Origin: a virus | Taxonomy: Duplodnaviria; Heunggongvirae; Uroviricota; Caudoviricetes | Virus record (IMG/VR): IMGVR_UViG_2711768068_000022 | DNA: 17,603 bases | Direction: 5' to 3' (one strand) | Part shown: one piece after another, positions 1,462 to 17,603 of the stretch | Layout: every line of letters begins with the position of its first letter | Position numbering within the stretch: position 1 is the first letter of the stretch | Made by a program: the position numbers and the translations under genes | Notes under the pieces: model-generated | Told to the model about the DNA's origin: nothing | Database searches by the model: none | What the model saw: the letters and a program-made list of their open reading frames with translations, nothing else

Positions 1462-1978
1462 ATATGTCCTTTTATCACTATACCAGGTCAAGTCATTGAT
1501 TTGATTAAACAATTATCATTGAAAAAGTGCCAAAAATCGCAAATTGACTACACCATTAACTACACCGTTCGGTGCACTGTATGAAACAACGTGGAACAAA
1601 TAGACACAAGAAATATACAGGCGGGTAATCTTTCCAGGGGGAAGCGCACCAATTCATGAGGGGCGTTAATGTCGATATGGGGATCCCCATAACGGGGCTA
1701 CCGGATTTTTTTTCCGGTTAACATTTAATCAGGCTGGTGGGTTTTACATACCCTTGATCACCGTAATGATGATCCAGATGTGCACCTTTTCCACCAATGG
1801 CGGAAAAGCTCCAACCGTAACGATGATCGCTATGGTTGCCTCGATGGTCTGCGTGGTCATTATGACCATTCAGCCAGTGACCTTAATCAGAATTTTTCGC
1901 TAAAAAATGACGTTGGCCACGTCATCCTGATAGCACAAAATCACGTCGACTTTTAATGAACGGTTAAACCGTCTTTTT

Positions 1979-2013
1979 GTCACGGTGTGTCACTGGTTGT
2001 CACTCTCCGTCAC
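1979..2013 (+). repeat. Four GTCAC motifs phased exactly 10 bp apart (starts 1979, 1989, 1999, 2009); candidate recombinase/excisionase or regulator binding array
   Basis: Sequence ttGTCACggtgtGTCACtggttGTCACtctccGTCACgatt read directly; one motif per helical turn. Confidence 0.5.
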
Positions 2014-2127
2014 GATTGAGGTGGTGGTCATTCTGCCCGACCGCGCATTTTTGCGCTATCGGGAATATAAAACAGTTACCGCCGTCAGCTACCCAGCTCA
2101 GAATTGAGCCGCCTTTTAATCAACAAG

Positions 2128-2409
2128 TTACCGCCGTAACCGCTCCGGCTTCTTCCAGTGGTACGTGATTTTCTCCTTCTCCCGATACAGTTCAACGCGG
2201 CGATTGTAGGCCAGCATTTCCAGAACGCGGATCCGTATGTCGCGCATATCCGCATCATTAAGCTGGATACCATCACGGCGCATCACCTCAGCAACAACAC
2301 GCGCATAATTTTCGGCTGTCACGCTGTCCGGCTGCGTGGTCTGTTCGTCAGCCTGCTGGCTGATTCCAGAGACGTGGCGGATTAATCGCAGTATTTCGGC
2401 TTCTGTCAT
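2128..2409 (-). CDS. Hypothetical protein (93 aa), last gene of the packaging operon after TerL
   Basis: ORF with ATG start preceded by GAGG about 9 nt upstream; 14 nt after the TerL stop; no motif recognised. Confidence 0.5.
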   Translation of the reverse strand: MTEAEILRLIRHVSGISQQADEQTTQPDSVTAENYARVVAEVMRRDGIQLNDADMRDIRIRVLEMLAYNRRVELYREKEKITYHWKKPERLRR

Positions 2410-2422
2410 GCTGCTGACCTCA

Positions 2423-4084
2423 TTACACCCCGCTAAATTCTTCCAGTTTCTGGCGGTGGCTGTCGCTTATATCAAAAGCAAAATCCTCATGCTCTGCCTG
2501 GAATGTACCAAACGCCATCAGCGCCGCCACGCTCGGGTCTATCTTGTTCGGTGATTTTTTCTTGTTCGGCTTGATATTGGCGTTCGCGTCACTCTGCATC
2601 ACGACGTTACTCATCGACCAGGACAACACCGGATCGCCACGATGCACAATCACCCTGCGGTTAACAAAAACTTCGAACGATTTCGCCGCCGGACTGAATC
2701 TGAGGTAGGTTTGCGGGAACGGCTCCACCTCAAAGCCTGCCCCCTGTAATTGCGTCCTGAGATGCGTGGCGTTCCACGTATCAAAGCCCACCAGCCTGAT
2801 ATTAAATTTCTCCGCATCCTGCATGATGTCATCTCTGATCCGGTCGTAATCAATGCAGTCACCTGGCGTTGTGCGTATCCAGCCCGCTTTAGCCCACTGG
2901 CGATAGACAGCGCGGTTTTTATTGGCGGGGTTCTGTAGCTGGAACTCCGGCAGATAATGACGGGAAACCAGCATGATATTTTTACCGACCGGAAAGGCAT
3001 AGCACACGCTGGAAATATCGCTGGTTGATGATAAGTCCAGCCCCGCGTAACACTCCTGCCCGTGTAAATCTTCCTCCGTGAACGTTCCGGCACACTCAGC
3101 CCATGCGCCGTTACCCATCCACGGGGTAGCCCCCTGGCACCAGATATTAAATCGCTTTGTCATCATCTCCACCCATTGCGACGGAATACCCCGCGCTTTC
3201 TGGATGGTTGAGGCCAGTTTTTCACGATCCACGGAAACATCGATGTTAGGGTTAGCCTTTATCCACATCGCCGGATCATCAACCTCGTTTTCGTCGTCCA
3301 GTTCGTAAATCAGTACAAAAATTGAATCGTTGACCTCTTCGCCGTCCAGGATCTGGCAGCAATAATCATAGTGCTGCTTACAGGCTGAAACGACGTTACT
3401 GCCCGATGTGGTAATGGCAAATAACAGCCCTTCGGGACGTGCGCCCATCCCCAGCTCAAGCGCGGAATAAACGCCGTTATCGGGGTGTAGGTGGTATTCG
3501 TCCACGATGGAAAGGCTTGGGTTTGTGCCCTCGATGGTTGCCGCTTTTGCTGCCAGCGGCTTTAACAGGCTGTTGCTTTTCGGGTGCATCACCTTGTGGG
3601 CCTGAATATTCACCCGCCTGCGTAACGGTCGGGATAAAAGGCACATCTGACGCGCATCATCAAAAACGATCCGCGCCTGGTCACGGCTCACCGCTGCGGT
3701 GTAAATATCCTGCTGCCCGTTCTCCATAATCAGAAACCAGTTAGCCAGAATCGCGGCGGTCGTGGATTTCGCATTTTTGCGCGGCACTTCGATAAAGGCG
3801 CTCGTGTATTTGCGCCGTCCGGTGGCCTTAACCTTAAAGCCGAGGATGCACGCAAAGGCGAACTGCTGCCACGGCTCCAGCTCAATGGGTCTGCCACGCA
3901 TCGGCCCTTTTACGTGCGGGCACACCCTGGAAAAGGCAATAAACCGCTCCACAACCTCACGATCGAACGTGTAAAGGGGGCTTTCAAGGTCCGAAAAGTA
4001 CCGTTTAACGGCCTGTTTCAGCCGTTTACAGGCCGGAATTTTGCCCGTTTTTACGTCTTCTGCGTACTTATTCCAGGCGGTCAA
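2423..4084 (-). CDS. Terminase large subunit (TerL)
   Basis: 553-aa ORF; N-terminal WNKYAEDV...GK motif typical of terminase ATPase domains, C-terminal nuclease-like region; apparent TTG start at 4082-4084 preceded by GAGGA, overlapping the TerS 3' end by 17 nt. Confidence 0.9.
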   Translation of the reverse strand: MTAWNKYAEDVKTGKIPACKRLKQAVKRYFSDLESPLYTFDREVVERFIAFSRVCPHVKGPMRGRPIELEPWQQFAFACILGFKVKATGRRKYTSAFIEVPRKNAKSTTAAILANWFLIMENGQQDIYTAAVSRDQARIVFDDARQMCLLSRPLRRRVNIQAHKVMHPKSNSLLKPLAAKAATIEGTNPSLSIVDEYHLHPDNGVYSALELGMGARPEGLLFAITTSGSNVVSACKQHYDYCCQILDGEEVNDSIFVLIYELDDENEVDDPAMWIKANPNIDVSVDREKLASTIQKARGIPSQWVEMMTKRFNIWCQGATPWMGNGAWAECAGTFTEEDLHGQECYAGLDLSSTSDISSVCYAFPVGKNIMLVSRHYLPEFQLQNPANKNRAVYRQWAKAGWIRTTPGDCIDYDRIRDDIMQDAEKFNIRLVGFDTWNATHLRTQLQGAGFEVEPFPQTYLRFSPAAKSFEVFVNRRVIVHRGDPVLSWSMSNVVMQSDANANIKPNKKKSPNKIDPSVAALMAFGTFQAEHEDFAFDISDSHRQKLEEFSGV

Positions 4085-4424
4085 GCTCGTCCTCTTCTTC
4101 TGTTTCCGGTGGATTTTTACGGCGGCTTATCGGGTCAAAACCGAGCAAAGAGGCCATTTTTATCATCACTCTTTCAGCGTCGGATTTTGCGCTTAATGCG
4201 GGGTTTCTGCTCTCACCGCCCTGACTGTTAACAATGCTGAACCCGCGCGCCGCAAGGTCTGCAACGGCTTTCCGGTAAATGGAGTAGTTGACACAATACA
4301 GTTCCAGATTGCTCCAGTCGGCGGGGGTCAGGTCTCCCCGTTCCGCAAGCTGCCTAGATTTTTCCCGCCACTGCTTCACGGCGATATCATCCAGGTAGGC
4401 GGGGGCTTTCGGTGGTCTTGACAT
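4068..4424 (-). CDS. Terminase small subunit (P27-family-like)
   Basis: 118-aa ORF immediately upstream of and overlapping TerL; size and W..L/C.NY/NPA pattern recall P27-family TerS; no strong SD seen upstream. Confidence 0.7.
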   Translation of the reverse strand: MSRPPKAPAYLDDIAVKQWREKSRQLAERGDLTPADWSNLELYCVNYSIYRKAVADLAARGFSIVNSQGGESRNPALSAKSDAERVMIKMASLLGFDPISRRKNPPETEEEDELDRLE

Positions 4425-4714
4425 GCTTATTTTTTCGCCAGATTATTTTTCAAAAAATTCCCGTGCATAAAAATTTGAGGAGGCGTTCGGTGCCCGGCGG
4501 GGTCGGGTTTGTCCTGAAAACGCCCCCCCACCCCGTCATACAGCCTCATCAGCGATTGCGGAAACATTCCATAACCTCGCGGTCACGGTCGGTTAATCGC
4601 TTCGCTGTGATGCGTTCTGCGCGTCCTGACGCTTTATCTTTATGCCCTGTTTCCTGTGTCTTCCATGCGTCACGCTGCCTTATAAGTCCACGGATAAGGC
4701 GGTTTTGTTCCCGC

Positions 4715-5155
4715 TCATTCATCAGCGTCATACATCCAGTTATTGCGGTTAGCGGCCCGTTCTTCCTCTTCACGAAATCCACCTGCGGCACGCTTGCTTT
4801 TTGTTGCCGGATCAAGCCATTTCGTTTTCTGGTTATGACACGCCTGGCACAATGGTTGATGGTTCCATTCGGGCCAGAAGAGAACATCATCACCGCCATT
4901 AATCGGGATAATGTGATCCACCACCACGGCGGGCGTATATATCCCCTTCTCAAGGCATCGCACGCATAACGGGTTTTTACTCAGATACATGGCGCGGTAT
5001 TTGTCCCACTGTCTGGAATATCCACGCGCGCGGCGGTGTCCTCGTCTGGCATCCTCTGCACGCCATGCCGCCCGCCTGTGCTCCTCACACTTGCCGGATT
5101 TAACGCGCCTGTTACAGCCTGGTTCTGTGCATCGTCTTAATGGTTGCCACGGCAT
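4715..5155 (-). CDS. HNH endonuclease (packaging-associated)
   Basis: 146-aa ORF with Cys pairs and VDHIIP...NHQPLCQACHNQK HNH motif; sits immediately upstream of terS as in HK97-like cos phages; GGGGG SD; start overlaps the upstream gene stop by 1 nt. Confidence 0.85.
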   Translation of the reverse strand: MPWQPLRRCTEPGCNRRVKSGKCEEHRRAAWRAEDARRGHRRARGYSRQWDKYRAMYLSKNPLCVRCLEKGIYTPAVVVDHIIPINGGDDVLFWPEWNHQPLCQACHNQKTKWLDPATKSKRAAGGFREEEERAANRNNWMYDADE

Positions 5156-5451
5156 CAGTACACCCCCACATCACGGTAAGCCGTCCAGAGTGCGCCAATC
5201 GTCATGGGTACGCGTGTTTTTGCGTTATCCGCGACAATCTGGCGATTCTCATACAGGTGAGCGATAAACATCATGCAGCCAATCTTTATGGCTGGCGTGA
5301 ACTCCAGCCCGTCATCAAAGCGCCTGCCTATGTGTATCTGGCACGCCTCAAGCGATGCGGCAATGTATCCGCTGATTAACTGGTCTTCCTCGTCTCCATC
5401 GATACGGCAATGGAGTTTCACTTCTTCCAGGGTGATAAGTTCTTCTGTCAT
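5155..5451 (-). CDS. Head-tail connector protein (gp6-like)
   Basis: 98-aa ORF; N-terminal LITLEEVKLHCRID.DEEDQLI pattern typical of gp6-like connector proteins; ATGA start/stop overlap with the upstream gene. Confidence 0.7.
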   Translation of the reverse strand: MTEELITLEEVKLHCRIDGDEEDQLISGYIAASLEACQIHIGRRFDDGLEFTPAIKIGCMMFIAHLYENRQIVADNAKTRVPMTIGALWTAYRDVGVY

Positions 5452-5786
5452 TTTTCCGCGCCCTCACGACAAAGAATTTCAAGGCGTGTCCTGGCGACAT
5501 CCGGCAACGGCTGCCCGATGATATTCAGTACACGCCCCGCCAGCGGCCCCGTACTGACCTTTATCCGGCTGGTGGCGTTGATGTCCTTCCGGTACCGTAT
5601 CCAGATCCTTACGGTACCAATCGCCAGCTCTACGCCCGATGAAATGGCCTCCTTGCTGCTGATCATGTTCACGCTTGCCCAGAGTGTGTGACCGTCCTCC
5701 CACGTTTCGAGTATTTCGCCCGTCATGGCTCTGGTCTGTTTCAGGGTCTGAATCGTTATCCTGTCACGCAGTCGCCCTATGTTCAT
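5448..5786 (-). CDS. Head closure / head-tail adaptor protein (HK97 gp7-like)
   Basis: ORF in the track runs to 5828; I place the start at the internal ATG 5784-5786 (MNIGRLRDRITIQ...), which has a GAGGGAG SD and forms an ATGA overlap with the portal stop. Pattern RITIQ...W...VWA...IRYR recalls head closure proteins. Confidence 0.65.
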   Translation of the reverse strand: MNIGRLRDRITIQTLKQTRAMTGEILETWEDGHTLWASVNMISSKEAISSGVELAIGTVRIWIRYRKDINATSRIKVSTGPLAGRVLNIIGQPLPDVARTRLEILCREGAEK

Positions 5787-6994
5787 TCCGGTTTTTCTCC
5801 CTCGCTGATTTTTACTTCCTGTTTCCATGCCTGACTGAACTCATCACCACCATCACGCGGTGACAGTCCTTCACGTTCGCGGGCTTCGTTCGGGCACATA
5901 ACGCCGGATTTGATGCCGCGCTCATAGGTGGCAAAGCGTTCGCCAGGTGTGGCCCGTAACAGGTCCGCGCTGTCAAACTCCACCTGATACCGGATACCAG
6001 GTACAGGCGAGGCCACCAGCAGGGCGTTTTTTATCTGCTGCTCAAAGTTCGCCAGCCACGGGCGCATCGTCATGGTGAGAAATGCGCGGCTTGCCTCGCT
6101 GAAATTGCTGTAGGTGCTGTTGCTGTATTCCTGCAAAAAAATCGGCGAGACGTTGAACATTCGGGCGATGTCTTCAATGGTAAAGCGACGGGAGGCCAGC
6201 CATTCAGCATCCTGATTACTCATGCCCAGCTGCTGATAGCTCATCCCCCCTTCAAGGATGGGCGTTTTTCCGGCGTTTCTGGCCCCTTTGTAGCGTTCCA
6301 GTGCGGCTAATGCCTGTTTGCCCTTCACGCCGTCCAGCCATTCGCCTGACGTGATAACCCCTGCCGCCATCATGCCATCACGCATCACGCTCGCGCCGTG
6401 GCGTTGTTGGGCCAGCCCAAGCCCCAGCGATTCGCGGCAGATGGTTACAGGTGAGCGCCCCATAAAGCCGTCATCCGTGGAGTAACGAAGGTGAAGTACT
6501 TCCCACGGTAAATAGTTGTGGGTGTTTCCGGTGTAGGCGTCAGTGATGCAATAGCGCCAGTTGTGTTCGCCTGTCTGCTCCACGTTCACCGACTGCGGCG
6601 GGTAAGGATGTAAAGCCGCCGGAAAACCATCACGCCCCCACTGAATAACCGCATAAGCATTACCGTTTAACAGGCAGTGGCGGATCATCATTCGCTTAAA
6701 CTGGTAGGGGGTTTGCCATGCGTTCGGGCGCTCGTTGAGGATGTGATCGACCGGATGAGAATCAAGCCACTCGCGGGCCTCCTTCCCCTTCTCATTGCGT
6801 ACCAGGTACAGGTAGCATGGCATAGTAGCCACCGCCTCAGAGATGACCGTAACGGCGTTCATGACGGCAGGCAGTGATTCCGCTGTCCCCGATGATACGT
6901 ACTCACCCGCCCCCGTGTTCGATGTGCCAGCCAGCGCCATAAATTCATCAAGCGTCATGCTGCGCTGCTCTTTTTTTCTTCTGAAAGGCCACAT
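5783..6994 (-). CDS. Portal protein (HK97 family)
   Basis: 403-aa ORF, size and position between protease and adaptors; GGGGGTG SD; ATG start. Confidence 0.88.
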   Translation of the reverse strand: MWPFRRKKEQRSMTLDEFMALAGTSNTGAGEYVSSGTAESLPAVMNAVTVISEAVATMPCYLYLVRNEKGKEAREWLDSHPVDHILNERPNAWQTPYQFKRMMIRHCLLNGNAYAVIQWGRDGFPAALHPYPPQSVNVEQTGEHNWRYCITDAYTGNTHNYLPWEVLHLRYSTDDGFMGRSPVTICRESLGLGLAQQRHGASVMRDGMMAAGVITSGEWLDGVKGKQALAALERYKGARNAGKTPILEGGMSYQQLGMSNQDAEWLASRRFTIEDIARMFNVSPIFLQEYSNSTYSNFSEASRAFLTMTMRPWLANFEQQIKNALLVASPVPGIRYQVEFDSADLLRATPGERFATYERGIKSGVMCPNEAREREGLSPRDGGDEFSQAWKQEVKISEGEKPE

Positions 6995-6995
6995 A

Positions 6996-7568
6996 TCACA
7001 CCCCCGCTAAATCCACCCACCAGCGGCGATTATCCGCACGCGGCATTTTTTCGGGGTGCTGCTCATACAGGGAACGGCGGGCCAGCTCCACGCCGGAATC
7101 GGGGTAAGCCGGTACCGATGTAACGGTAATTTCGTACAGTTCCGCCACCAGCACGGTGCGCACGCATGGATCTGTTGTGGTATCCCATACATCCTTACGG
7201 GAGCGAAAGCCAAAGCTCATGCCGGATATATCACCACGTTTAACCAGTTCGATAACGTCGCGCCCTGTACTGGTATCCGGTGGGGTCAGTTCAAAGCGTA
7301 ACCCTGTTTCATCCTCTTCCAGTTTCAGCGTGCCGGAACGGGTGCGCCCCAGTAACATACTGTGGTCATGCTCATACAGGCCGCGAACGTCATTACCCGC
7401 CGCAAGCCATTCAGTAAACGCCCCCCGCTGGAATTTTTCGTAAAACTCACCCCATAACAGTTCTGAAAGCTTATCCCAGCGAACAACGTAGCCTGTAAGC
7501 GTGTTGCTGCCGCTGGTGGTGATTTCCGATGACCGGATTTCCATACTCTTCATAATTTTTTCACCCAT
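6996..7568 (-). CDS. Prohead maturation protease (HK97 family)
   Basis: 190-aa ORF between major capsid and portal genes; GMSFGF...VTSVPAYP region resembles HK97-type prohead protease; alternative ATG starts at 7553 and 7544. Confidence 0.82.
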   Translation of the reverse strand: MGEKIMKSMEIRSSEITTSGSNTLTGYVVRWDKLSELLWGEFYEKFQRGAFTEWLAAGNDVRGLYEHDHSMLLGRTRSGTLKLEEDETGLRFELTPPDTSTGRDVIELVKRGDISGMSFGFRSRKDVWDTTTDPCVRTVLVAELYEITVTSVPAYPDSGVELARRSLYEQHPEKMPRADNRRWWVDLAGV

Positions 7569-7577
7569 AAAACACTA

Positions 7578-7597
7578 AAGGGGCTTTTAAGCCCCTT
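7578..7597 (-). terminator. Stem-loop between major capsid and protease genes (possible partial terminator/attenuator)
   Basis: Palindrome AAGGGGC-TTTTAA-GCCCCTT in the 39-bp capsid-protease gap, followed on the minus strand by a U-rich stretch. Confidence 0.4.
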
Positions 7598-7607
7598 CTG
7601 TATGCTG

Positions 7608-8765
7608 TTAATCGTCGTCCTGTGGCAGTTCCAGAATCTTGATCGCGTTCGAATCCACCACGCCACCGCCTAAATATTTCTGCGTGAAAATTTTGATGAA
7701 GCCCGGCTCTGTGAGGTTGTCCGGTCTGGTGCGAACACCTGTTTCGTGATCAACAATGTAGTAACCGCGTTTGAAGTCACCCAGGGCAATAACGTTATCA
7801 GGCATAAACTCCAGATATTCGACCGGAAGGCCCAGCAACGTATCAGGATCACCCGCCTGTAAACGGTCACGCCAGATGTAATCACCGTTCGCGTTCTTCA
7901 CCTTCTGGAGTTTTGCCGCCGTCGTGGAGTTAACCACCCAGACCGCGTTTTTGCGGTATTTTTTACGTAATGCAAATTTCAGGTCGATCAGCGGGTCCGC
8001 AGATGTCCACGCCAGAGATTCGGAAGGTTTAATTACCTGCAACGTACCAAAATCACGCTCTTTGTCGTTCTTCTCTGCACGGGGTACGGATAAAAAACCT
8101 TTTGCTTTTTTGTCACCGTCGCCCACAACCAGATCGCTTTCTTCGGTTTCCGTGAAGGTGTCGCCAATCTCACCCGTCAGCCATGAAAGGATGTCCACAT
8201 CGGAAAAATCCACGATTTCCTGTGTGGTGCGCGGGTACGCATAGACCGGATACAGCTTAATGCTCACCTCGTTAATCTGCGGGGTGCTGGTCTGTTCGCG
8301 TGCCTTACCCTCTTCACCGTGGTTAACGGTCGCACCGCCAGCGGAAACAAGCTGCTTAAACTCGTTGCTGCTGATTTTTTTCACGGTACAGATGCGGCGC
8401 ATGGTGGACTCATCCGCCAGCATTCGCATGATTTCGGTGTTCAGTTCGGGGATAACGGTATAACCACCATCAGCGGGAACGCCTGTACTTAATGCGCGGG
8501 TTTCACCTGTCAGAATGTAGCTGCGTAGTTCTGCGGGGTCAGTGGTCTGGCTGCTTTTACCTGGCTTGCTGCGCTCTTCGTCTGCAATGGCTTCAAGGCG
8601 GGAAATGTCTTTATCGAGGGATTCAGCTTTAGCGCGTAATTCGTCAAATTTTGCGCCCTCAGCATCGTTAAGACTGCGGTTTTCTTTTTCCGCGTTCTCC
8701 AGCATGTCGCGCATCTGATTTTTAATGGCGGTTTTCTGCTGGCGTAATTCGATTATTCTCGGCAT
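7608..8765 (-). CDS. Major capsid protein (HK97 fold) with N-terminal scaffold-like delta domain
   Basis: 385-aa ORF; charged coiled-coil-like N-terminus (about 100 aa) followed by a capsid-like body; first gene of the head operon; ATG start. Confidence 0.88.
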   Translation of the reverse strand: MPRIIELRQQKTAIKNQMRDMLENAEKENRSLNDAEGAKFDELRAKAESLDKDISRLEAIADEERSKPGKSSQTTDPAELRSYILTGETRALSTGVPADGGYTVIPELNTEIMRMLADESTMRRICTVKKISSNEFKQLVSAGGATVNHGEEGKAREQTSTPQINEVSIKLYPVYAYPRTTQEIVDFSDVDILSWLTGEIGDTFTETEESDLVVGDGDKKAKGFLSVPRAEKNDKERDFGTLQVIKPSESLAWTSADPLIDLKFALRKKYRKNAVWVVNSTTAAKLQKVKNANGDYIWRDRLQAGDPDTLLGLPVEYLEFMPDNVIALGDFKRGYYIVDHETGVRTRPDNLTEPGFIKIFTQKYLGGGVVDSNAIKILELPQDDD

Positions 8766-9010
8766 AAAAAAAGTCCTGGGGTTAAGTAAGGAACTCCAGG
8801 ACGCGGCAAAAACTCAACCGTTTTTCATAAGGGAATCAGCAATCGCACCGATCGTTTTCCCGCCTGGTAATGAATATTGGCGAGCACATTAACAGGCGGG
8901 AAAGTGGCCCCAGCGTCCTGGCACCACGGGCGAGAATAATCATGATTCAGTTCGGGTAAAATATGCCGATCCGCTCAGTGAACAACGTGGAACAACCACG
9001 AACAAATAAT

Positions 9011-9046: not shown

Positions 9047-9056
9047 GTATGGGTGC

Positions 9057-10092: not shown

Positions 10093-10101
10093 ATTGCCAC
10101 C

Positions 10102-10416: not shown

Positions 10417-10664
10417 GATTCCACCTCTCCGGTTTTAACGTTGATGGTTGTTACCTGTTCCGCTTCGGCAATCTCCCGTTCTGTCAGCGTGGCAAAGTTT
10501 GCCGCCGCTGTGGTCATGAATGCGCTTATCAGTTCGGGATGTGCTTTCGCGTATCCTTCCCCCGCGTGGCGGTCTATCGTTCTGATTGCCACCTTTAAGG
10601 CGTGCTCTGTCATGTCTAACGCTTTATATTTTGGCTCTGTTCTGTCTCTGTGTTTTTGAGTCAT
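10413..10664 (-). CDS. Hypothetical protein (83 aa)
   Basis: Start placed at the internal ATG 10662-10664 with GAGGTGG SD; the longer track ORF (to 10796) would translate through the iteron array. Confidence 0.5.
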   Translation of the reverse strand: MTQKHRDRTEPKYKALDMTEHALKVAIRTIDRHAGEGYAKAHPELISAFMTTAAANFATLTEREIAEAEQVTTINVKTGEVES

Positions 10665-10665
10665 T

Positions 10666-10875
10666 TGCCCACCTCTACCCACTTTTTTCGCCCACTTTTT
10701 ACGTTTTCCCACTTCGTCCAACGTGGGAAATTTGGGATTTATATCATCTTGTTTCATAGGTATTTTTTTAGTGCCCACTTTTTGGGATATATGCACGTGG
10801 GAAAGTGGGTAATTTTGTTAAAATTCCGTTAAATCGCCCACCTTTCCCACTTTTAATGCCCACTTTTTACAGTGG
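10666..10875. repeat. Iteron array with central AT-rich segment: putative replication origin
   Basis: About 8 direct copies of CCCAC(T/C)TTT plus inverted copies (ACGTGGGAAA, GTGGGAAAGTGGG) around an AT-rich stretch (about 10735-10770); lies at and just past the 3' end of the replication ATPase gene. Confidence 0.7.
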
Positions 10876-12264
10876 TCCTACATCATCACCGTCAATGTAG
10901 ATCACGTCGTCTTTTTCCAGTTTGGCTAACCATCGTTTAAGGTGTTTTGTGTCATACCCCAGCTTTTTCATATCGTCACGTAACAGCGGGATCGTGCACT
11001 TGTCGCCGTGCTGTGTGCGTGAACGTATGCATCCCCATAGCGCGGTATGGTTTTCCGTCTTGTTGCCTGCCTCCTCGATGCGCTCCAGTTCAACGGGAGG
11101 GCGCGGCTTATCCACCACCACCAGCGACGTGATTAACTCCCCGTCAGCGTCGGTAAAAAGCTCCACCACGCGTAAGTCATATGCGGCTTCTTTGAGTTCC
11201 TCCGCGTCCTTCATTTTGGTGCATGAGATAACCAGCGCTTCGCTTCCTGCGTCCTCCCTGCGTATCCGGTATTCAGCATCCAGCGAAGCACGAAATGCAC
11301 TAGAACCGCGCGCGCCTTTCGTCTCATCCTTGCCGGAATGGTGAACCACCAGCACCGTGGCCCCTGTGCGTCGTTTCAGTTCGTCACAACCACGGATAAA
11401 CGCCCCCATATCACGGGAATCATTTTCATCATTACCACCAAAGCAACGCGCCAGCGTATCCAGAATAATCATGCGAACAGGTTTACCCGTTTCCCTCTCC
11501 ACCTGACGGGCAGCGATAACCATTTCATCAACATCAAGCGGGACCGCCGGAAAGATGGGACGGTTTACCAGATACAGATTTTTCACCTGCTCACCGTGCA
11601 CAACCTCCCAGGCTTTTACACGACGCGGAACGCCGATACCGCCTTCACCAACCACATAGAGAACAGCGCCATGCGCCACCCTGCGGCCTCCCCACTGACG
11701 GCCCGTGGAAACGTGACACGCCCACGAACCCGCAAGGAATGATTTATAGGAACCGCTTGCCCCGTATATGCTGCATAGCGACGATGCCGGAATAATCCCC
11801 TTTACCACGTAATCTAATTGCGTGTCGTATCCGGCAGATCCAACGCTCATCGGTAGCGTGGTTTTTCGCTGGTGGTGTTCTTCCCCTGGCTTTTTCCCCC
11901 GCTCCCGTTCCAGATATTCGCGCCAGTTCTCCCGCTTCTGGCTGTGTATCCCTTCGGGGTAATAATTCGCATCAGTTACGCCCGCCGCCGCCAGCTTGTG
12001 CGCAATGGCATTAATATTTGATGGCCTGATGTGGCCTGCCTTGTACAGCCGGACACAATAGCGCCCCTCGTCGATGATTCTCAGGTCTGCCAGTTCATCC
12101 AGTTGATCATCAGCCAGCACAATGGGAGGCACATTATCGCCAGCCAGTCGCCCGTCCTGTTCCTGCCACTGTTTCGCATGTGCCCACGCATCACTACCCG
12201 CAAAAATGATGACTTCGGTCATCTTGTCGTAAGGCTGTTTTTTTAAGTTCGGTGCGCTTTTCAT
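10867..12264 (-). CDS. Replication protein, RecA-fold ATPase (RepA/DnaB-like helicase/primase-associated)
   Basis: 465-aa ORF; deviant Walker A (YGASGSYKS), Walker B-like MIILDT, and VLVVHHSGKD motif typical of RepA/AAA_25-type replication ATPases; ATGA overlap with the upstream ORF. Confidence 0.78.
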   Translation of the reverse strand: MKSAPNLKKQPYDKMTEVIIFAGSDAWAHAKQWQEQDGRLAGDNVPPIVLADDQLDELADLRIIDEGRYCVRLYKAGHIRPSNINAIAHKLAAAGVTDANYYPEGIHSQKRENWREYLERERGKKPGEEHHQRKTTLPMSVGSAGYDTQLDYVVKGIIPASSLCSIYGASGSYKSFLAGSWACHVSTGRQWGGRRVAHGAVLYVVGEGGIGVPRRVKAWEVVHGEQVKNLYLVNRPIFPAVPLDVDEMVIAARQVERETGKPVRMIILDTLARCFGGNDENDSRDMGAFIRGCDELKRRTGATVLVVHHSGKDETKGARGSSAFRASLDAEYRIRREDAGSEALVISCTKMKDAEELKEAAYDLRVVELFTDADGELITSLVVVDKPRPPVELERIEEAGNKTENHTALWGCIRSRTQHGDKCTIPLLRDDMKKLGYDTKHLKRWLAKLEKDDVIYIDGDDVGPL

Positions 12265-12560
12265 TTCTTGCCCCTGAATCCGTTAATCATGGTTTTCAGC
12301 TTCTGGATGTTTGCCCGTGCCCTGGCGTTGCTGGTGGGCACGTTATGCGGCGCGGTCTGTACCAGAGAAAAATCACGCCGGAACTGATAAACAGGCATCA
12401 CGCAATCATATTCGTAACCTTCACGGCGGTAAGTTACGCACCGTCCCGCCACGCCCTTAATCATTACCGTGCCGCCGTACTGGTCGCGGTAAATATCACC
12501 GCGCATAAATTTAGGGTGAGTGTTGCCACTGGCAGTTAAGCCAGAATATTTAAGTTTCAT
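12261..12560 (-). CDS. Hypothetical protein (99 aa)
   Basis: ORF with GGAGAA SD; translationally coupled to the replication ATPase gene. Confidence 0.55.
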   Translation of the reverse strand: MKLKYSGLTASGNTHPKFMRGDIYRDQYGGTVMIKGVAGRCVTYRREGYEYDCVMPVYQFRRDFSLVQTAPHNVPTSNARARANIQKLKTMINGFRGKK

Positions 12561-12565
12561 TATTT

Positions 12566-12799
12566 TTATTCTCCGGTGTGCTGTTCGTTATATCTGTCGT
12601 GCAATGTCTCTATTTCCTGCAACTCATTTATTACAGGCTCAAGAAGCGTTATTAATGATGTAATAATCCGCGTTTTTTTTGCATTACGTTCATTATCGCC
12701 AAAGGATTCAAGGCACATCCGCAATATTTCGTACATACCTTCAGCGTAAGCAAGGGCACTAAATGCGCGGTCTATTGTTTCAAGATAAATATCACGCAT
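12566..12799 (-). CDS. Hypothetical protein (77 aa)
   Basis: ORF with GAGGA SD; predicted helical; no motif recognised. Confidence 0.5.
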   Translation of the reverse strand: MRDIYLETIDRAFSALAYAEGMYEILRMCLESFGDNERNAKKTRIITSLITLLEPVINELQEIETLHDRYNEQHTGE

Positions 12800-13241
12800 G
12801 GCTTACATCCTCAGGAAATTTTCTTCTGTAACGCGCCTCTGCCACATATTCCGCATAATCGGCGGCGATATTCAGTACATCAAGTCCCGTTGATTTATAT
12901 TCTTTCGTGGAAAGTAAGAAAAAAGCCGCTCTAATAAGTTCTGGCATTGACGAAAGCGCATCAGCCGCATCATCAGGAACGCCGGAAAATTCTTGTTTCA
13001 GGGAATTAAAACGATCATCACGCATAACCCCCCCCCCATTTTCACAATCAGCAACAAGAATATTTTTAGCGTCATTCAGCGACCGCGTTGCGATGTATCG
13101 GATACATTCCAGGGCGAACGTTGTCCGGTCTTTCTGTTCTTCTCCCTGCGCAAGCTCTGCCGTGCATTCAATATCAATAAGCGCGTGCATCAGCGTAGTG
13201 AGCGCGGCGGCGGCTGCGTCCGGTGTGGTTTTATTGCACAT
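12792..13241 (-). CDS. Hypothetical protein (149 aa) containing a G10 homopolymer in-frame
   Basis: Start placed at ATG 13239-13241 with AGGAGG SD (the track gives a TTG start at 13271); the start overlaps the stop of the upstream small paralog. Confidence 0.55.
   Translation of the reverse strand: MCNKTTPDAAAAALTTLMHALIDIECTAELAQGEEQKDRTTFALECIRYIATRSLNDAKNILVADCENGGGVMRDDRFNSLKQEFSGVPDDAADALSSMPELIRAAFFLLSTKEYKSTGLDVLNIAADYAEYVAEARYRRKFPEDVSHA
13028..13037. repeat. Homopolymeric C10/G10 tract inside a coding sequence
   Basis: Ten consecutive C on the plus strand (G10 on the coding strand, encoding NGGGV). Confidence 0.9.
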
Positions 13242-13404
13242 GGCACACCTCCTGACGAATACGGGCGACAAAAATCAGATGTGCGTGCGGCAGCTGTGCA
13301 CGTGCTTCGCGCTCAGTGGCAGCGGTAACGGTGAATATTGCAATACTGTCTGTCAGGCACTGCATAAAGCGCCAGACAAAATAAGGGCGTGTGAATACAG
13401 CCAT
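13231..13404 (-). CDS. Small paralog A (57 aa) of a tandem ORF family; may alternatively be the C-terminus of a longer ORF starting at 13698
   Basis: ATG 13402-13404 with GGAG SD; product shares the motif F(V/L)WRF...TEREAR...ARIRQ with paralog B; the same frame stays open upstream to ATG 13696-13698. Confidence 0.4.
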   Translation of the reverse strand: MAVFTRPYFVWRFMQCLTDSIAIFTVTAATEREARAQLPHAHLIFVARIRQEVCHVQ

Positions 13405-13690
13405 GTGAAAGGCTCCCAGATGAATTTTAAGGAGTCTCGCTACTACGCTGTCAAACATGGTGGCGAGACGTAACAGGGTTGACAGACTGGTCATCTGGAA
13501 ACCAGCGAGCACAAAGGCTCCCCCGTTACGCCCCGCCATAATGCGGGTATGGGTAGGTTTACGGACACAAAAAAACCGCTTATCGGATGTGGGCGGCTGT
13601 CCGCCAGATGTATTCAGGCTGTCAAACCCGGTCGCCATGTGGGCGACGGGGGAAGCATACAGCCCCGTGATAATTTTTTGCAAGCGGTTT

Positions 13691-14248
13691 TTACGCATGA
13701 TGTGACCCCTGACGAATACGGGCGGCGAATACAGCAACACAACCGGACGGGCAACGGCTACGCGCTTCGCGTTCCGTCCAGGCGGTTACGTGGATGATTT
13801 GATGTTCTGACGCGCCAAAGATGATAAAGCGCCAGAGAAAGGCGGTTTGAGAATGTACAAGGGTAGGGATAGTAGCCATGTTGGCAGCCTCCTCAGTGTG
13901 GTTAAGATAACCGCCACCGGAAACGCCAATTTCGCTGGTGGCGGACTGTACAGGGTTGGCGTAACCGGACACTGAAGAAACCGGCGCGGATTGCTCCGCC
14001 CCCGTACAGCCCACCATTGATAAGGTGTGACTATGCGGCACAAAAAAACACGCGGGGCGCGTGTTATGCGCTTCAGTTTTGCCCAGGACGCCAATCCCGG
14101 CACCCGTTTTATGAGGTGCGCGGGAATCATAGCTATTTTCGACACTGGCGATCAACTGGTTTTTTTCTCCGATATTCAGTGCCAGAAAACGCCACACAAA
14201 GGCAGTTTGTGTGTGTACAAGGTGTGGTATATGATTTACAGCAACCAT
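13691..14248 (-). CDS. Hypothetical protein (185 aa) with internal duplication; its C-terminal 62 aa (13691-13879) has its own strong SD and may be translated separately as paralog B
   Basis: ATG 14246-14248 with AGGAG SD and an upstream 5'-UTR hairpin; N-terminus MVAVNHIPHLVHTQTAFVWRF and internal MATIPTLVHSQTAFLWRF (GAGGAG SD) are paralogous. Confidence 0.4.
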   Translation of the reverse strand: MVAVNHIPHLVHTQTAFVWRFLALNIGEKNQLIASVENSYDSRAPHKTGAGIGVLGKTEAHNTRPACFFVPHSHTLSMVGCTGAEQSAPVSSVSGYANPVQSATSEIGVSGGGYLNHTEEAANMATIPTLVHSQTAFLWRFIIFGASEHQIIHVTAWTEREARSRCPSGCVAVFAARIRQGSHHA

Positions 14249-14339
14249 AACGGCTCCTAGTTTACGTTGTTGGTTAGACGCCCTGCATGTGTTGCGAGCA
14301 CTGCGGGGTTTCGTCTTTTCTGTACCTTGCATTAACAAG

Positions 14340-14421
14340 GTGTAAGACACAATGTAAAATAACGGTGTCTTACACGTCAACCCTTCAAAATATTTTTTTT
14401 TCGTGTATATTGTCTTACACC
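14340..14421 (+). promoter_or_regulatory. Operator/promoter region of RHH module 1
   Basis: Perfect 11-bp inverted repeat GTGTAAGACAC (14340-14350) / GTGTCTTACAC (14365-14375), a third half-site TGTCTTACACC (14411-14421), and candidate -35 TTCAAA (14384-14389) / -10 TATATT (14406-14411). Confidence 0.5.
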
Positions 14422-14441
14422 AAAAACATGAGGGGTTAAAC

Positions 14442-14621
14442 ATGGCAACGGGTCCAAAGAATGCAAAATCACAATCTGTAACTGCACGTATTGCCCATGA
14501 AATTATTGAAGGCATGGAGAACGTGAAAGAAGAAGGTGAAAGCACGGGGCAGTTTATAAACGCAGCCATGCGCGGCGAAATCAAACGCCGCCAGCGCCGC
14601 AAGACCAAAGAATCAGAATAA
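14442..14621 (+). CDS. Arc/MetJ-like ribbon-helix-helix DNA-binding protein (59 aa), module 1
   Basis: ATG with GAGGGG SD 6 nt upstream; predicted strand-helix-helix pattern (SVTARIAHEIIEGMENVKEEGESTGQFINAAMRGEI), basic C-terminal tail. Confidence 0.6.
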   Translation: MATGPKNAKSQSVTARIAHEIIEGMENVKEEGESTGQFINAAMRGEIKRRQRRKTKESE

Positions 14622-14625
14622 TCAC

Positions 14626-14670
14626 CATCAGCGCCGTGGCGTGAGGTACTACGGCGCATTGCTTTACAGG
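14626..14670 (+). repeat. Conserved 45-bp intergenic element, copy 1 (hairpin GCGCCG-N15-CGGCGC followed by ATTGCTTTACAGG)
   Basis: Near-identical to 15311-15355 (2 differences) although the flanking coding sequences are diverged. Confidence 0.7.
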
Positions 14671-14678
14671 GCAGTACC

Positions 14679-14906
14679 ATGACCAACAACACACTATCAC
14701 CAATACAAGACACGCAGACGCAAGAAGATGAAATCATTCGGCAAAGGCAGTTAGAAACCTGTGCTCGCCTTGAAGCCGAACTGGCTAATCCTCTGAATAT
14801 CCAACTAATACCGATAGAAATGAAACCTGGACTATTCGCGTTGGAGGCATTTTTAGCAAGCTGCCCACGGCGGCTAAAGTCCCGTAAGAATCGCCCGCCA
14901 GGATGA
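14679..14906 (+). CDS. Hypothetical small protein (75 aa), module 1 second gene
   Basis: ATG 57 nt after the RHH1 stop; weak SD; begins MTN like its counterpart in module 2. Confidence 0.4.
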   Translation: MTNNTLSPIQDTQTQEDEIIRQRQLETCARLEAELANPLNIQLIPIEMKPGLFALEAFLASCPRRLKSRKNRPPG

Positions 14907-15025
14907 GTACACAAAACCGAACTATGAAACGGATTATTCCGTTTCCGGGGCGTTTGTGTGTGTATAAAGAGTAAGCTATGCTCTTTTATAGCCATAATCG
15001 TTACCTCAATTAATGGTTTGGTTAG

Positions 15026-15067
15026 ACGCCCCGTATGTGTTCCCATCACTGCGGGGCGTTGTTTTTT
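15026..15067 (+). terminator. Rho-independent terminator of RHH module 1
   Basis: 8-bp perfect stem ACGCCCCG/CGGGGCGT (15026-15033 / 15052-15059) followed by TTGTTTTTTG. Confidence 0.55.
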
Positions 15068-15083
15068 GTGCTAGTTGTGTGTA

Positions 15084-15099
15084 ATGTGTATATACACAT
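15084..15099 (+). promoter_or_regulatory. 16-bp perfect palindrome ATGTGTATATACACAT overlapping a candidate -10; putative operator of RHH module 2
   Basis: Read directly; sits about 30 bp upstream of the RHH2 start; a second dyad TTGAC-GT-GTCAA follows at 15122-15133. Confidence 0.45.
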
Positions 15100-15126
15100 A
15101 AACACATTATATGGAGTGTAATTGAC

Positions 15127-15306
15127 GTGTCAACACACAAAAATGAAAGGCGTGGTAATCCTCCTTTCCAGTTCCGTTTAGATCCTGACTTACGGGAAAA
15201 GATGGAAAAAGCACAACAACAAGACGGTGATGACTCTTTAGCAGCTTGGATAAAACGAATAATCCGAAAAGAATTACAGCAACGCGGTATTGAACCCAAA
15301 GAATAA
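15127..15306 (+). CDS. Arc-like ribbon-helix-helix DNA-binding protein (59 aa, GTG start), module 2
   Basis: Not in the ORF track (GTG start, under 60 aa); GGAG 10 nt upstream; PPFQFRLDPDLREKMEKAQQQDGDDSLAAWIKRIIRKEL aligns with the P22 Arc strand-helix-helix pattern as recalled. Confidence 0.5.
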   Translation: MSTHKNERRGNPPFQFRLDPDLREKMEKAQQQDGDDSLAAWIKRIIRKELQQRGIEPKE

Positions 15307-15310
15307 AAAA

Positions 15311-15355
15311 CATCAGCGCCGTGGCGTGAGGAACTCCGGCGCATTGCTTTACAGG
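15311..15355 (+). repeat. Conserved 45-bp intergenic element, copy 2
   Basis: Same position (57-nt intergenic gap) and sequence as copy 1. Confidence 0.7.
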
Positions 15356-15363
15356 TACACACA

Positions 15364-15567
15364 ATGACCAATAAAGAATCAACCAATACACCATCGCAAA
15401 AAACGAACAGAGAGCACGAAAATATGGCGCTCGAGCATGAATCAGAAAGATTCGCTCCATGCGCTTTTGTCCTTGATGAGTTTCTAAAAAAATATTCACG
15501 TTCTGAACGGATGAAAATGGCAGCACAATACGGCCCCAACAAGCAAGGTAATTGCCCACCAGCCTGA
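15364..15567 (+). CDS. Hypothetical small protein (67 aa), module 2 second gene
   Basis: ATG 57 nt after the RHH2 stop; weak SD. Confidence 0.4.
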   Translation: MTNKESTNTPSQKTNREHENMALEHESERFAPCAFVLDEFLKKYSRSERMKMAAQYGPNKQGNCPPA

Positions 15568-15641
15568 TAGCGGCTATCATTCCCGTGCTTATGTTTGGGA
15601 TCACATACACATAAGGCGCAGCAGGTTAATTGTTCAGAAAG

Positions 15642-15669
15642 GCGGCTCCATATCGGGGCCGCTTTTTTT
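15642..15669 (+). terminator. Rho-independent terminator of RHH module 2
   Basis: Stem GCGGCTCC/GGGGCCGC (one G-U pair), 5-nt loop, then T7. Confidence 0.65.
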
Positions 15670-15810
15670 ATGCCTGAAAAACCCCAATTTTGTTGTTTTT
15701 CAGTTTCACCAGGGCGAACGAATCCCCGCCCACGTTCGGGCGCATATTCAATCTTCATGGTTATATCTCTGTATTAGTGGATGTGTGGCGACTGTGTGCC
15801 GCCAGTCTTT

Positions 15811-15999
15811 TTAGTGAACTGCCTTGCAGCTATCCTTCCAGGCCAAAACCTCAGATAAAGACCAGCCAACAGAACGCCCACCAAGTTTACGACGTGATGG
15901 GAATTGTCCGGCCTTTTCCAGGCGGTAGCGGCATGAGCGGCTAAGGCCTGTTAGCTTTTCGCATTCTTTTTCACGTATAAACCGATCAGTGCTTAACAC
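15811..15999 (-). CDS. alpA: AlpA-family (phage Xis/MerR-like) transcriptional regulator/excisionase
   Basis: 62-aa ORF, GTG start with AGGGGG SD; motif KLTGLSRSCRYRLEKAGQFP...GGRSVGWSLSEVLAW matches the AlpA family; sits next to the integrase. Confidence 0.8.
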   Translation of the reverse strand: MLSTDRFIREKECEKLTGLSRSCRYRLEKAGQFPSRRKLGGRSVGWSLSEVLAWKDSCKAVH

Positions 16000-16050
16000 T
16001 ATTGCCCCCTTTCGTTTCTTAAAGAGTTATTTCGTGTTCTATTGCGTTGG

Positions 16051-16080
16051 GATGTGTCTGATTGTGTCAGGATGATTCAG
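16051..16080 (+). repeat. Three tandem 10-bp units GATGTGTCTG / ATTGTGTCAG / GATGATTCAG upstream of alpA
   Basis: Read directly; helical-turn phasing; same TGTGTC core as the arrays at 1979-2013 and 16281-16335. Confidence 0.5.
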
Positions 16081-16160
16081 AGTTGGCAAATGTTGGTGTC
16101 GCATGGTTTACAGAAAGAGGAATAATCAGAATAAAATCATTTAAATTCATGTTAATACAA

Positions 16161-16190
16161 AGGCATAAAATCTTGTTTTATGCCTTTTTT
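16161..16190. terminator. Palindromic hairpin terminator between int and alpA (possibly bidirectional)
   Basis: Perfect 10-bp stem AGGCATAAAA/TTTTATGCCT with a 5-nt loop; T5 on the plus side, U-rich on the minus side. Confidence 0.55.
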
Positions 16191-16280
16191 CGCACGCTTT
16201 AACGCGTAATTCACTAATGTATAAAAAACCAGCTGAGCATTAAAAATCAGTAACTTACAAATCTGTATTCTTTTTGGCCT

Positions 16281-16335
16281 CTTGTTCGTGATTGTGTCAC
16301 GTTGTTGCACATTGTTTCACGTTGTATCTGTGCAC
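16281..16335 (+). repeat. Tandem ~20-bp direct repeats (GTTGTTGCACATTGTKTCAC) just 3' of int
   Basis: 15-bp ATTGTGTCACGTTGT (16291-16305) and ATTGTTTCACGTTGT (16311-16325) differ at one position, with a partial third unit. Confidence 0.55.
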
Positions 16336-16373
16336 TTATCCAGTATGCGCATACTGAAAAAACACGAAAAAAA

Positions 16374-17603
16374 TTATTTTATTCTGGTTACTGGTAGCGT
16401 GGTTACGTTTTCATGTGTTCCCGCCAGTATCTCCAACCGCTCCACCCACATATCAAGCGCATTGCGTTTCGCATCAATATAGCGGGAATGGTTGTACACG
16501 CGTTGCATTCCTGGCATCTGGTGGCCTGTAAGCTGCTCCACGACGTGAGGATCAACGCCTAAATCGTTCAGCATGGTTGTAAAGGTGCGCCGGATGTCAT
16601 GCAATGACCATTGAGGGTGTTTTAGCCTCCTGTGCGCTAATCTGCCGTACTGCGATACGCTGGTTTCCTGTTTCACTTCCCCCAGCAATAAGCCCGTGTG
16701 CCTGTTCTGCTCCACCAGCTGCGTGACGAACGGCAGTATCGCTTCCGGTATGGGCCGGAATATGGCTACCTTCGTTTTGCTGTGCTCCTTCGGAACGGTC
16801 CAGAGCATTTCGGTAAAATCCCACTCGCCGATCTCCGATAACCTCAGTTCTACTGTTCGGCATCCGAAAACAATCAGGAGGCGGATTAGTGCGACGTAGT
16901 AAGGGGAAAATATTTTTTTGTCCAGTGCCTGCAATAATTCGCCAAGTTCTTTGTTACTTAAGACACGCTCGCTTATATCCGGTTTTTTCCCAACGTCCGC
17001 CACACTCATATCATCAAGAACGTTGCTGATTGCATAGCGCCGCTTCCTGCAGAACTTAAGCGCCTGCTTGCATGTCTGTAGCAGGAACCCGGCGGAAACA
17101 GGGGCTTTCTTTGCCACCCGATCAAAACAGGCCAGCCAGTGCCGTAGCTCGCATTTATCCAGCGGCATAGGGCCAATGTGCTGTATTACGTGATTATTTA
17201 GCCGCTTTTTCAGTGGGTCATAATCCACACGGTTTTCCTTTGCGTACGACTCAAGCCAGTAGGTGAGCGCATCGCCAACCGTTACCGGCTTTAACGCTTC
17301 CTGTACGGTGTAATTCATTTCATGACGTGGATTTTTCCCCTCTGCCAGCCATGCGCGACACTGGGCGGCTTTTTCCCTGGCTGATTTCAGGCTCAGATCA
17401 GGATAATTTCCCAGCTTAATGCGTTCCGGTGGTGCCCCCCTTCCCGTTCCGGCCCTGTAAGTGAAATACCAGGTTAAAAGGCCACTGGTTGAATGCCTGA
17501 CGCTCAGGTTTCCACCGTCATTAAGAAAGGCTGTTTTTTGGGCGGGTGTGCCGTTGATTTTCCTCAGCTGTGTATCGCTCAGTTTGTTAAGTGCTCTGCT
17601 CAT
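16374..17603 (-). CDS. int: Tyrosine site-specific integrase (P4-type)
   Basis: 409-aa ORF; C-terminal catalytic motifs (HDIRRT, LTGH, Y in RVYNHSRY); ATG start is the last three bases of the window, so the adjacent att site is outside it. Confidence 0.92.
   Translation of the reverse strand: MSRALNKLSDTQLRKINGTPAQKTAFLNDGGNLSVRHSTSGLLTWYFTYRAGTGRGAPPERIKLGNYPDLSLKSAREKAAQCRAWLAEGKNPRHEMNYTVQEALKPVTVGDALTYWLESYAKENRVDYDPLKKRLNNHVIQHIGPMPLDKCELRHWLACFDRVAKKAPVSAGFLLQTCKQALKFCRKRRYAISNVLDDMSVADVGKKPDISERVLSNKELGELLQALDKKIFSPYYVALIRLLIVFGCRTVELRLSEIGEWDFTEMLWTVPKEHSKTKVAIFRPIPEAILPFVTQLVEQNRHTGLLLGEVKQETSVSQYGRLAHRRLKHPQWSLHDIRRTFTTMLNDLGVDPHVVEQLTGHQMPGMQRVYNHSRYIDAKRNALDMWVERLEILAGTHENVTTLPVTRIK

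Follow-up and report, generated by a model that had tools for sequence, protein, structure and literature searches.

A mosaic variant of EcCIEDL933 at the phoQ locus of Escherichia coli, very probably an intact capsid-forming phage-inducible chromosomal island

The viral stretch IMGVR_UViG_2711768068_000022 (Caudoviricetes), which was analysed in its full length of 17,603 nucleotides and is referred to here as the window, very probably carries a capsid-forming phage-inducible chromosomal island (cf-PICI) that is intact and about 16.3 kb long. The element, a mosaic variant of EcCIEDL933, was inserted at the 3' end of phoQ by its tyrosine integrase. This is in line with the original prediction, made from the sequence alone, of a tail-less, capsid-encoding satellite next to phoQ. 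The phoQ gene (1-1461, plus strand) encodes the PhoQ_Sensor, HAMP, HisKA and HATPase_c domains (Pfam) and is 99.8% identical to the phoQ of K-12, and the host was therefore identified as E. coli. From the phoQ end to the last base of the window, minus-strand genes are densely packed. Each of the sequence features named in the literature for cf-PICIs was found, i.e., an integrase gene at one end together with flanking att repeats, AlpA, a replicase of its own with an origin, and head and packaging genes, and the sequence holds nothing that contradicts this assignment. EcCIEDL933 is the experimentally characterised prototype of the cf-PICIs and is identical with the island at the phoQ|roxA site of EDL933, where 15,461 bp lie between the att cores (published size 15.4/15.5 kb; EcCIEDL933 literature), and with Sp7 of Sakai. 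The system is thus known already; it has been dissected by experiment, and its structure has been solved. The EcCIEDL933 literature used here comprises Alqurainy et al. (2022, bioRxiv 10.1101/2022.09.08.507074), He et al. (2025, bioRxiv 10.1101/2025.02.11.637232) and the PDB entry 9GYI.

The packaging half of the element is nearly identical to that of EcCIEDL933. All genes of this operon lie on the minus strand, every Pfam match reported here scored above the gathering threshold, and the protein identities refer to full-length alignments with the proteins of the EDL933 island. The operon begins with the HK97-fold major capsid protein (MCP; 7608-8765; PF05065; 99.2% identity), followed by the S78 prohead serine protease (6996-7568; PF04586, E = 4e-48; 98.4%), the portal (5783-6994; PF04860, E = 2e-90; 99.5%), a head completion or closure protein, i.e., a head-tail adaptor (5448-5786; PF05521; 99.1%), the gp6-like head-tail connector (5155-5451; PF05135; 100%) and the HNH endonuclease, a cofactor of cos cleavage (4715-5155; PF01844; 99.3%). 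Between the HNH endonuclease and TerS lies a hypothetical protein of about 58 aa (4549-4725; phrog_3173, E = 7e-37; 100%), which, if the numbering is counted from the MCP as gene 1786, is probably the published gene 1792, whose mutation severely reduces the transfer of EcCIEDL933 (EcCIEDL933 literature). TerS of the P27/Terminase_4 family (4068-4424; PF05119, E = 1e-23; 99.2%) and TerL (2423-4084; PF03354 (TerL_ATPase) and PF20441 (TerL_nuclease); 98.4%) follow, and the last gene encodes a conserved 93-aa protein (2128-2409; phrog_1561, E = 2e-55; 92.5%), which likewise stands last in a classical PICI at the phoQ site. The full HK97-type head and packaging set that had been proposed was thus recovered, with all eight proteins above the Pfam gathering scores and 98.4-100% identical to the prototype, including the homology of the head proteins to HK97-type families on which the proposal had depended. 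In HNH-dependent cos phages such as HK97, cos is situated between hnh and terS. By analogy with these phages, the cos site of the element is predicted on the minus strand in the intergenic region upstream of terS, at 4425-4548.

According to the coordinates of the open reading frames (ORFs), the order MCP, protease, portal, head closure, gp6-like connector, HNH, TerS and TerL is the same as the order capsid, protease, portal, connectors, hnh, terS and terL, which is stated as conserved in proteobacterial cf-PICIs (cf-PICI literature). It had originally been described as the reverse of the HK97 order; with capsid, protease and portal first and the terminase last, it is a permutation and not a strict reversal. 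The MCP matched chain B of PDB entry 9GYI over all 385 residues (1-385; E = 7e-255), which is described by its authors as the capsid of EcCIEDL933 with T=4 symmetry, 47.5 nm across and without a covalent crosslink. The next matches in the PDB were not HK97 but the capsids of the gene transfer agent (GTA) of Rhodobacter capsulatus (6TB9 and 6TBA, E ~1e-46), while a search of the PDB with the gp6-like connector gave no meaningful match. In the phage collection, the identity of the MCP to full-size phages is at most 40%, and published identities of the MCP to phages are mostly below 40% (cf-PICI literature). The HNH homologue of Sakai (Sp7, ECs_1595, Sakai locus 14596-15036) is annotated as a ‘holin protein’, a mislabel that could mislead tools which separate prophages from satellites by means of holins.

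The integrase, AlpA, the replication ATPase and the iteron origin expected in the original prediction were likewise all found. The tyrosine integrase with its arm-binding domain (16374-17603, minus; PF00589, PF13356 and PF22022; 95.4% identical to the integrase of EcCIEDL933) ends with its ATG exactly at the last base of the window, and the AlpA regulator (15811-15999, minus; PF05930, E = 5e-18) is 98.4% identical to AlpA of EcCIEDL933. The replicative helicase or initiator of the RepA family (AAA_25), with a length of 465 aa, is encoded at 10867-12264 on the minus strand (PF13481, E = 3e-44). Directly 3' of its stop codon lies an iteron cluster (10678-10866), the putative replication origin, which contains all six exact copies of CCCACTTT, as opposed to 0.6 copies expected in the whole window. 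These are surrounded by degenerate copies in both orientations.

As proposed, genes for tail, tail fibre, tape measure, baseplate, holin and lysin, including endolysin, are missing: no ORF of the window matched such families in Pfam, PHROGs, NCBIfam or PADLOC. In addition, a tail module would not fit into the stretches that remain (1470-2127, 8766-9056 and the small ORFs in 12800-15800). Tail and lysis genes just past position 17603 would have pointed to an ordinary prophage cut by the window edge, and this was checked in relatives. In the closest complete genome, E. coli OkiPb01685 (98.6% identity, 97% coverage), int is directly followed by roxA, pepT and potABCD, and the same arrangement is present in Sakai and EDL933. 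Because host genes follow int directly in these relatives, no tail module is hidden beyond the window edge. The cf-PICI model of SatelliteFinder forbids a tail module and lysis genes, whereas a temperate HK97-like prophage would have tail, tape-measure and lysis cassettes and about 40 kb; none of these was found, and phoQ and, in the relatives, roxA delimit the element.

The left boundary of the island is formed by the attL core AAATATGTCC at 1460-1469, which overlaps the stop codon of phoQ and was recognised when the window was aligned to K-12, in which the phoQ-roxA site is empty, and to attL and attR of the relatives. The homology to K-12 ends directly after this core, and the island consequently begins about 430 bp further left than position 1900, where its end had been placed originally. 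The exact 10-mer occurs in two copies per related locus, which flank the element in OkiPb01685, Sakai, EDL933 and strain 2159, and the distance from core to core amounts to 16,075 bp in OkiPb01685 and, as in EDL933, to 15,461 bp in Sakai. In OkiPb01685 the second core is located 172 bp past the ATG of int, and attR is likewise present in Sakai and EDL933. Judging from the attR position in OkiPb01685, the right end should lie about 172 bp beyond the int start codon, outside the window, and the island should have a length of about 16.3 kb, compared with the 15,461 bp of EcCIEDL933. The size of about 16 kb given in the original prediction is consistent with this value. At least 16.1 kb of the island are inside the window (1460-17603), which fits the range of about 10-18 kb for cf-PICIs (He et al., 2025).

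The absence of tail and lysis genes could also be explained by a decayed HK97-like prophage that lost these modules by deletion and persists as a cryptic remnant. The head genes do belong to phage families, and the Sakai copy at phoQ|roxA is annotated as ‘prophage Sp7; untypable’. Nevertheless, we consider this explanation very improbable, as all genes are full length and free of frameshifts relative to the functional prototype, and as 407 of 5426 complete E. coli genomes share its compact architecture with precise att ends, which is also seen, at 66-80% identity and without tail genes, in other genera. Moreover, no full-size phage exceeds 40% MCP identity, and the prototype is experimentally mobile, which contradicts the status of a remnant for the prototype.

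In addition to its packaging operon with the same gene order (nine proteins with 98.4-100% identity, 96-97.5% at the DNA level), the cf-PICI of the window has in common with EcCIEDL933 the attB site at the phoQ stop codon between phoQ and roxA, the integrase and AlpA, the PerC/SSB block (80-82%) and the motif ACAACGTGGAACAA at the four corresponding positions. It differs in the replicase, which is a 710-aa DUF927 primase-helicase in EcCIEDL933 and the 465-aa RepA/AAA_25 helicase with CCCACTTT iterons in the window, with only the first 122 aa being related (68%). Further differences concern the region between alpA and rep, where the window has two C4/Icd-like cassettes and two oppositely oriented pairs of ribbon-helix-helix (RHH) genes, and a segment of 248 bp that follows the last gene. 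The replication side has its counterpart in the classical PICI of O157:H7 strain 2159 (NZ_CP017438.1 3117268-3128554), which has an EcCICFT073-type organisation, occupies the same phoQ|roxA site and contains the same types of Int, AlpA, Icd-like, DUF4222, RepA, SSB, PerC and terminal 93-aa genes; its rep module is 95.8% identical over 85% of the length. Because the rep-side modules match this PICI, the element of the window is regarded as a mosaic of an integrase, regulator and replicon half of classical PICI type and a packaging half of EcCIEDL933 type. The position of the strain 2159 PICI at phoQ|roxA therefore means that cf-PICIs and classical PICIs alternate at one attB and exchange halves. 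Replicase swapping and modular exchange between PICIs and cf-PICIs have already been documented in the literature.

The shared Int, AlpA, DUF4222, RepA, SSB, PerC and terminal 93-aa genes could suggest that the element itself is a classical, non-capsid-forming E. coli PICI, which redirects the capsids and the terminase of its helper. This is scarcely credible, as the element of strain 2159 has a lambda-type set consisting only of a major capsid homologue, a head decoration protein and TerS, without portal, protease, connectors, HNH and TerL, whereas the window contains portal, connector, head-closure protein, TerL and HNH, and portal, connector and adaptor are forbidden in the PICI model of SatelliteFinder. 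A classical PICI also depends on its helper for TerL. A complete miniature phage or a GTA-like domesticated particle with tail genes that are unrecognised or located elsewhere in the host, in favour of which the Rhodobacter GTA capsids as next matches after 9GYI and the deposition of some relatives as ‘phages’ of 15-16.5 kb can be cited, has barely any probability, since the stretches mentioned above leave no room for a tail module, the element differs from GTAs in having its own int/att, a replicon and a sequence-specific HNH-cos terminase, and tail mutants of the helper abolish the transfer of the prototype.

Some points weigh against the assignment to an intact cf-PICI. The cos site was not located, and its position in front of terS is set by analogy; attR and the 172 bp past int are outside the window, so that the right boundary is taken from the relatives; and the replicase and the regulatory region differ from the prototype, so that induction by HK106/HK446 would not be guaranteed in this mosaic.

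The mechanism can be taken from the experiments with EcCIEDL933 and extended to the copy in the window on the basis of the 98-100% protein identity. A helper phage would switch on AlpA, which would be needed for the induction of the island, as an alpA mutant of EcCIEDL933 is neither induced nor transferred (EcCIEDL933 literature). The island would then excise and replicate from its own iteron origin with the RepA-type helicase and the single-stranded DNA-binding protein (SSB). MCP, protease and portal from the island operon would build a small HK97-fold capsid with T=4 symmetry and about 47 nm in size; the heads of EcCIEDL933 are too small for the 40-kb genome of the helper (EcCIEDL933 literature). 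TerS, TerL and HNH of the island would cut the island cos and package island DNA only, the head-closure protein and the gp6-like connector would complete the neck, and the tail-less filled heads would dock onto the tails of helper siphoviruses. In EcCIEDL933, each mutant in a packaging gene, including MCP, portal and TerL, loses transfer with the helper being unaffected, and helper mutants in the tape measure or the major tail protein abolish transfer of the island (EcCIEDL933 literature). The tail specificity is set by the adaptor and the connector, and EcCIEDL933 takes the tails of HK106, not those of HK022 (He et al., 2025). Use of HK106-type tails is therefore predicted for the element of the window, because the identity to EcCIEDL933 amounts to 99.1% for its adaptor and 100% for its connector. 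By combining self-made, DNA-filled heads with the tails of unrelated phages, cf-PICIs spread genes across strains and even genera.

Two tandem cassettes are located between alpA and the replication operon (13231-14132, minus). In each of them, a leader with a1/b1 targets is followed by a C4 antisense RNA and an Icd-like ORF. The first cassette contains isrK (14119-14043; Rfam 66 bits, gathering 50), C4 copy 1 (14021-13934; 77.6 bits, gathering 45) and an icd-like ORF (13879-13691; NCBIfam NF033153), the second a c4-a1b1 target element (13660-13611; 46.8 bits, gathering 46.7), C4 copy 2 (13543-13456; 72.6 bits, gathering 45) and another icd-like ORF (13404-13231; NF033153). Judged by these sequence elements, the layout is that of the immI region of P1/P7 and of the CI RNA of P4. 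The a'/a2 and b'/b2 pairings of C4 were read by eye from the sequences without a statistical test. The hairpin loop CUUCAGUGU of C4 copy 1 can pair with ACACUGAGG, overlapping the GAGGAGG ribosome binding site of the first icd-like ORF, and its single-stranded ACGCCAA can pair with UUGGCGU, which is found upstream (within isrK) and downstream. At the equivalent places of the second cassette, UCCAGAUGA pairs with UCAUCUGGG and CUGUCAA with UUGACAG. As the pairings match within the cassettes and differ between them, the two cassettes have distinct, self-matching specificities. The whole-sequence z-scores of duplexfold for C4 and its targets were weak (-2.5 to +1.1), long RNAs pairing promiscuously.

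In EcCIEDL933, no Rfam match for C4 or isrK was obtained even at E<=1, and the element of OkiPb01685 contains the first C4 cassette only. If the cassettes are functional, it is conceivable, albeit doubtful, that they would gate the replication operon of the island by an RNA switch, by analogy with the CI RNA of P4, which gates the alpha operon. Such gating, if true, would be a layer of control undescribed for cf-PICIs, which could shift the range of inducing helpers or give heteroimmunity between co-resident islands. Our literature search yielded no paper that joins C4 antisense RNA with PICIs, and the C4 cassettes are the sole part of the locus with some novelty.

The 14-nt motif ACAACGTGGAACAA is present in five copies in the window if up to two mismatches are permitted, compared with 0.18 copies expected. 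It is placed about 100 bp inside each att end, in front of the capsid operon and between int and alpA, and may serve AlpA or the arm domain of Int as a binding site. The copies of the window are found on the plus strand at 1586-1599, a putative Int arm-type or AlpA binding site, and at 8982-8995, upstream of the packaging operon, a position which is also occupied in EcCIEDL933, and as three tandem, ACAACGTGGAACAA-like copies with 10-bp spacing on the minus strand in the int-alpA intergenic region (16292-16325), which are kept in EcCIEDL933 and OkiPb01685. Further copies have the coordinates 25429-25452 in the OkiPb01685 locus, and 15241-15264, 16608-16641, 22894 and 30479 in the EDL933 locus. 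A tandem ATT(G/A)ACTACACC repeat on the plus strand (1543-1566), about 100 bp from the core, is another putative Int arm-type or AlpA site, and a 75-nt imperfect direct repeat at the attL side is common to the int-proximal end in OkiPb01685. A strongly hydrophobic ORF of 41 aa (1744-1869, minus) lies in the non-coding stretch that separates attL from the last island gene, among short direct and inverted repeats. It was considered as a small toxin or holin and rejected: it is identical in OkiPb01685, but the sequences of EDL933, Sakai and strain 2159 align over 30 residues only with 70% identity, and it is probably not a conserved gene. Four GTCAC repeats with 10-bp spacing (TTGTCACGGTGTGTCACTGGTTGTCACTCTCCGTCAC) are found at 1977-2013, within the 248-bp segment 3' of the last gene that differs from Sakai and EDL933.

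The remaining genes of the replication side are also encoded on the minus strand. These are a 77-aa protein (12566-12799; phrog_2196), a DUF4222 protein (12261-12560; PF13973), a pair of small hypothetical proteins (10102-10416 and 10413-10664; phrog_27268 and phrog_1231), the SSB (9682-10092; PF00436), a regulator of the PerC family (9423-9671; PF06069, E = 3e-35), whose homologue in Sakai is annotated as pchE, and a 74-aa hypothetical protein (9057-9281; phrog_1957). A terminator-like hairpin AGCCGGAGCAATCCGGCT with a T-run occurs twice on the minus strand, after the 74-aa ORF (9046-9029) and after PerC (9400-9383). Both hairpins sit between the replication genes and the capsid operon, which suggests that the packaging operon may be transcriptionally insulated by this pair. 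A promoter and terminator scan of the window gave counts not above those of shuffled sequence.

The plus strand carries two copies of a two-gene unit, each with a YlcI/YnfO or Arc-like RHH protein and a small partner (14403-14621 and 14679-14906; 15127-15306 and 15364-15567). The units were recognised by NCBIfam NF041551, the Arc-like repressor of PHROG, phrog_949/21027 and a 75-nt repeat. They run opposite to the rest of the island (14403-15567), and the AT skew switches its sign there. A perfect sigma-70 consensus promoter (TTGACA-16-TATAAT; 15133-15106) faces the opposite way, which suggests that a divergent-promoter switch may be present at these units. Two long minus-strand ORFs in this region, 13691-15049 (452 aa) and 15006-15758 (250 aa), were rejected as genes, as they are rich in Cys, Ser and Arg, overlap the Rfam RNAs and the better-supported plus-strand ORFs, and span the sign change of the AT skew. 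A similar artefact may underlie the 247-aa ‘hypothetical protein’ that the EDL933 annotation places downstream of alpA. Anti-phage defence cargo was considered for 12792-15567, 2128-2409 and 9057-10416 with PADLOC and rejected as well; the one sub-threshold match (Cas8g-like, E = 6e-4) was regarded as chance.

The 407 E. coli genomes mentioned above, among them O157:H7 Sakai, contain the head and packaging module (2100-8800) with a coverage of at least 80%. The rep module is found in 586 of the 5426 genomes, and the whole configuration in 54 complete genomes at a coverage of at least 80%. In the phage collection, matches at the DNA level were limited to records of 15-16.5 kb (vB_KppS-Ant and Pasteurella Pmp8) or fragments, and these look like cf-PICIs that were deposited as phages. 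The MCP has relatives in Shigella flexneri (99%), Rosenbergiella (74%, truncated copy), Citrobacter amalonaticus (69%), Erwinia psidii (66%) and Gilliamella (66%). The distant relatives keep the operon order at 66-80% protein identity; in the Erwinia psidii locus the order is kept and no match to the head-closure protein was found. In the loci of Citrobacter and Gilliamella, a few accessory genes separate TerL from the host genes beyond it (UDG, rpoD and fabI, among others), and tail genes are absent downstream of TerL.

Among the known systems, the HK97-like HNH-cos siphophages (HK97 and the helpers HK106 and HK446) have the same families of MCP, S78 protease, portal, gp6-like connector, head-closure protein, HNH, TerS and TerL, and the HNH-dependent cos packaging of these phages is inferred for the element of the window. 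They differ in the MCP (at most 40% identity), in the permuted gene order and in the genome size of about 40 kb as opposed to about 16 kb, and the window is devoid of tail, lysis and lysogeny-repressor modules. The capsid of the prototype has T=4 symmetry, in contrast to T=7 in HK97, and no covalent crosslink (EcCIEDL933 literature). With P4 and the immI region of P1/P7, the element has in common the AlpA-type regulator, Ash and Icd-like sequences, and antisense RNAs of the C4/CI type with upstream (a1b1/isrK) and downstream targets, the latter overlapping the ribosome binding site. However, no matches to Sid, Psu, Delta or the alpha primase, which characterise P4-like satellites, were present among the Pfam and PHROG results of the ORFs scanned, and P4 resizes the capsid of P2, whereas the element of the window makes its own. 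Compared with EcCIEDL933, the copy in the window represents no new principle and is another instance of the packaging module of the type element. Its value is modest and lies in the example of modular exchange, with the packaging half of a cf-PICI and the half of a classical PICI joined at one chromosomal site, and it shows that some cf-PICIs carry C4-type antisense-RNA cassettes without a counterpart in the studied prototype.

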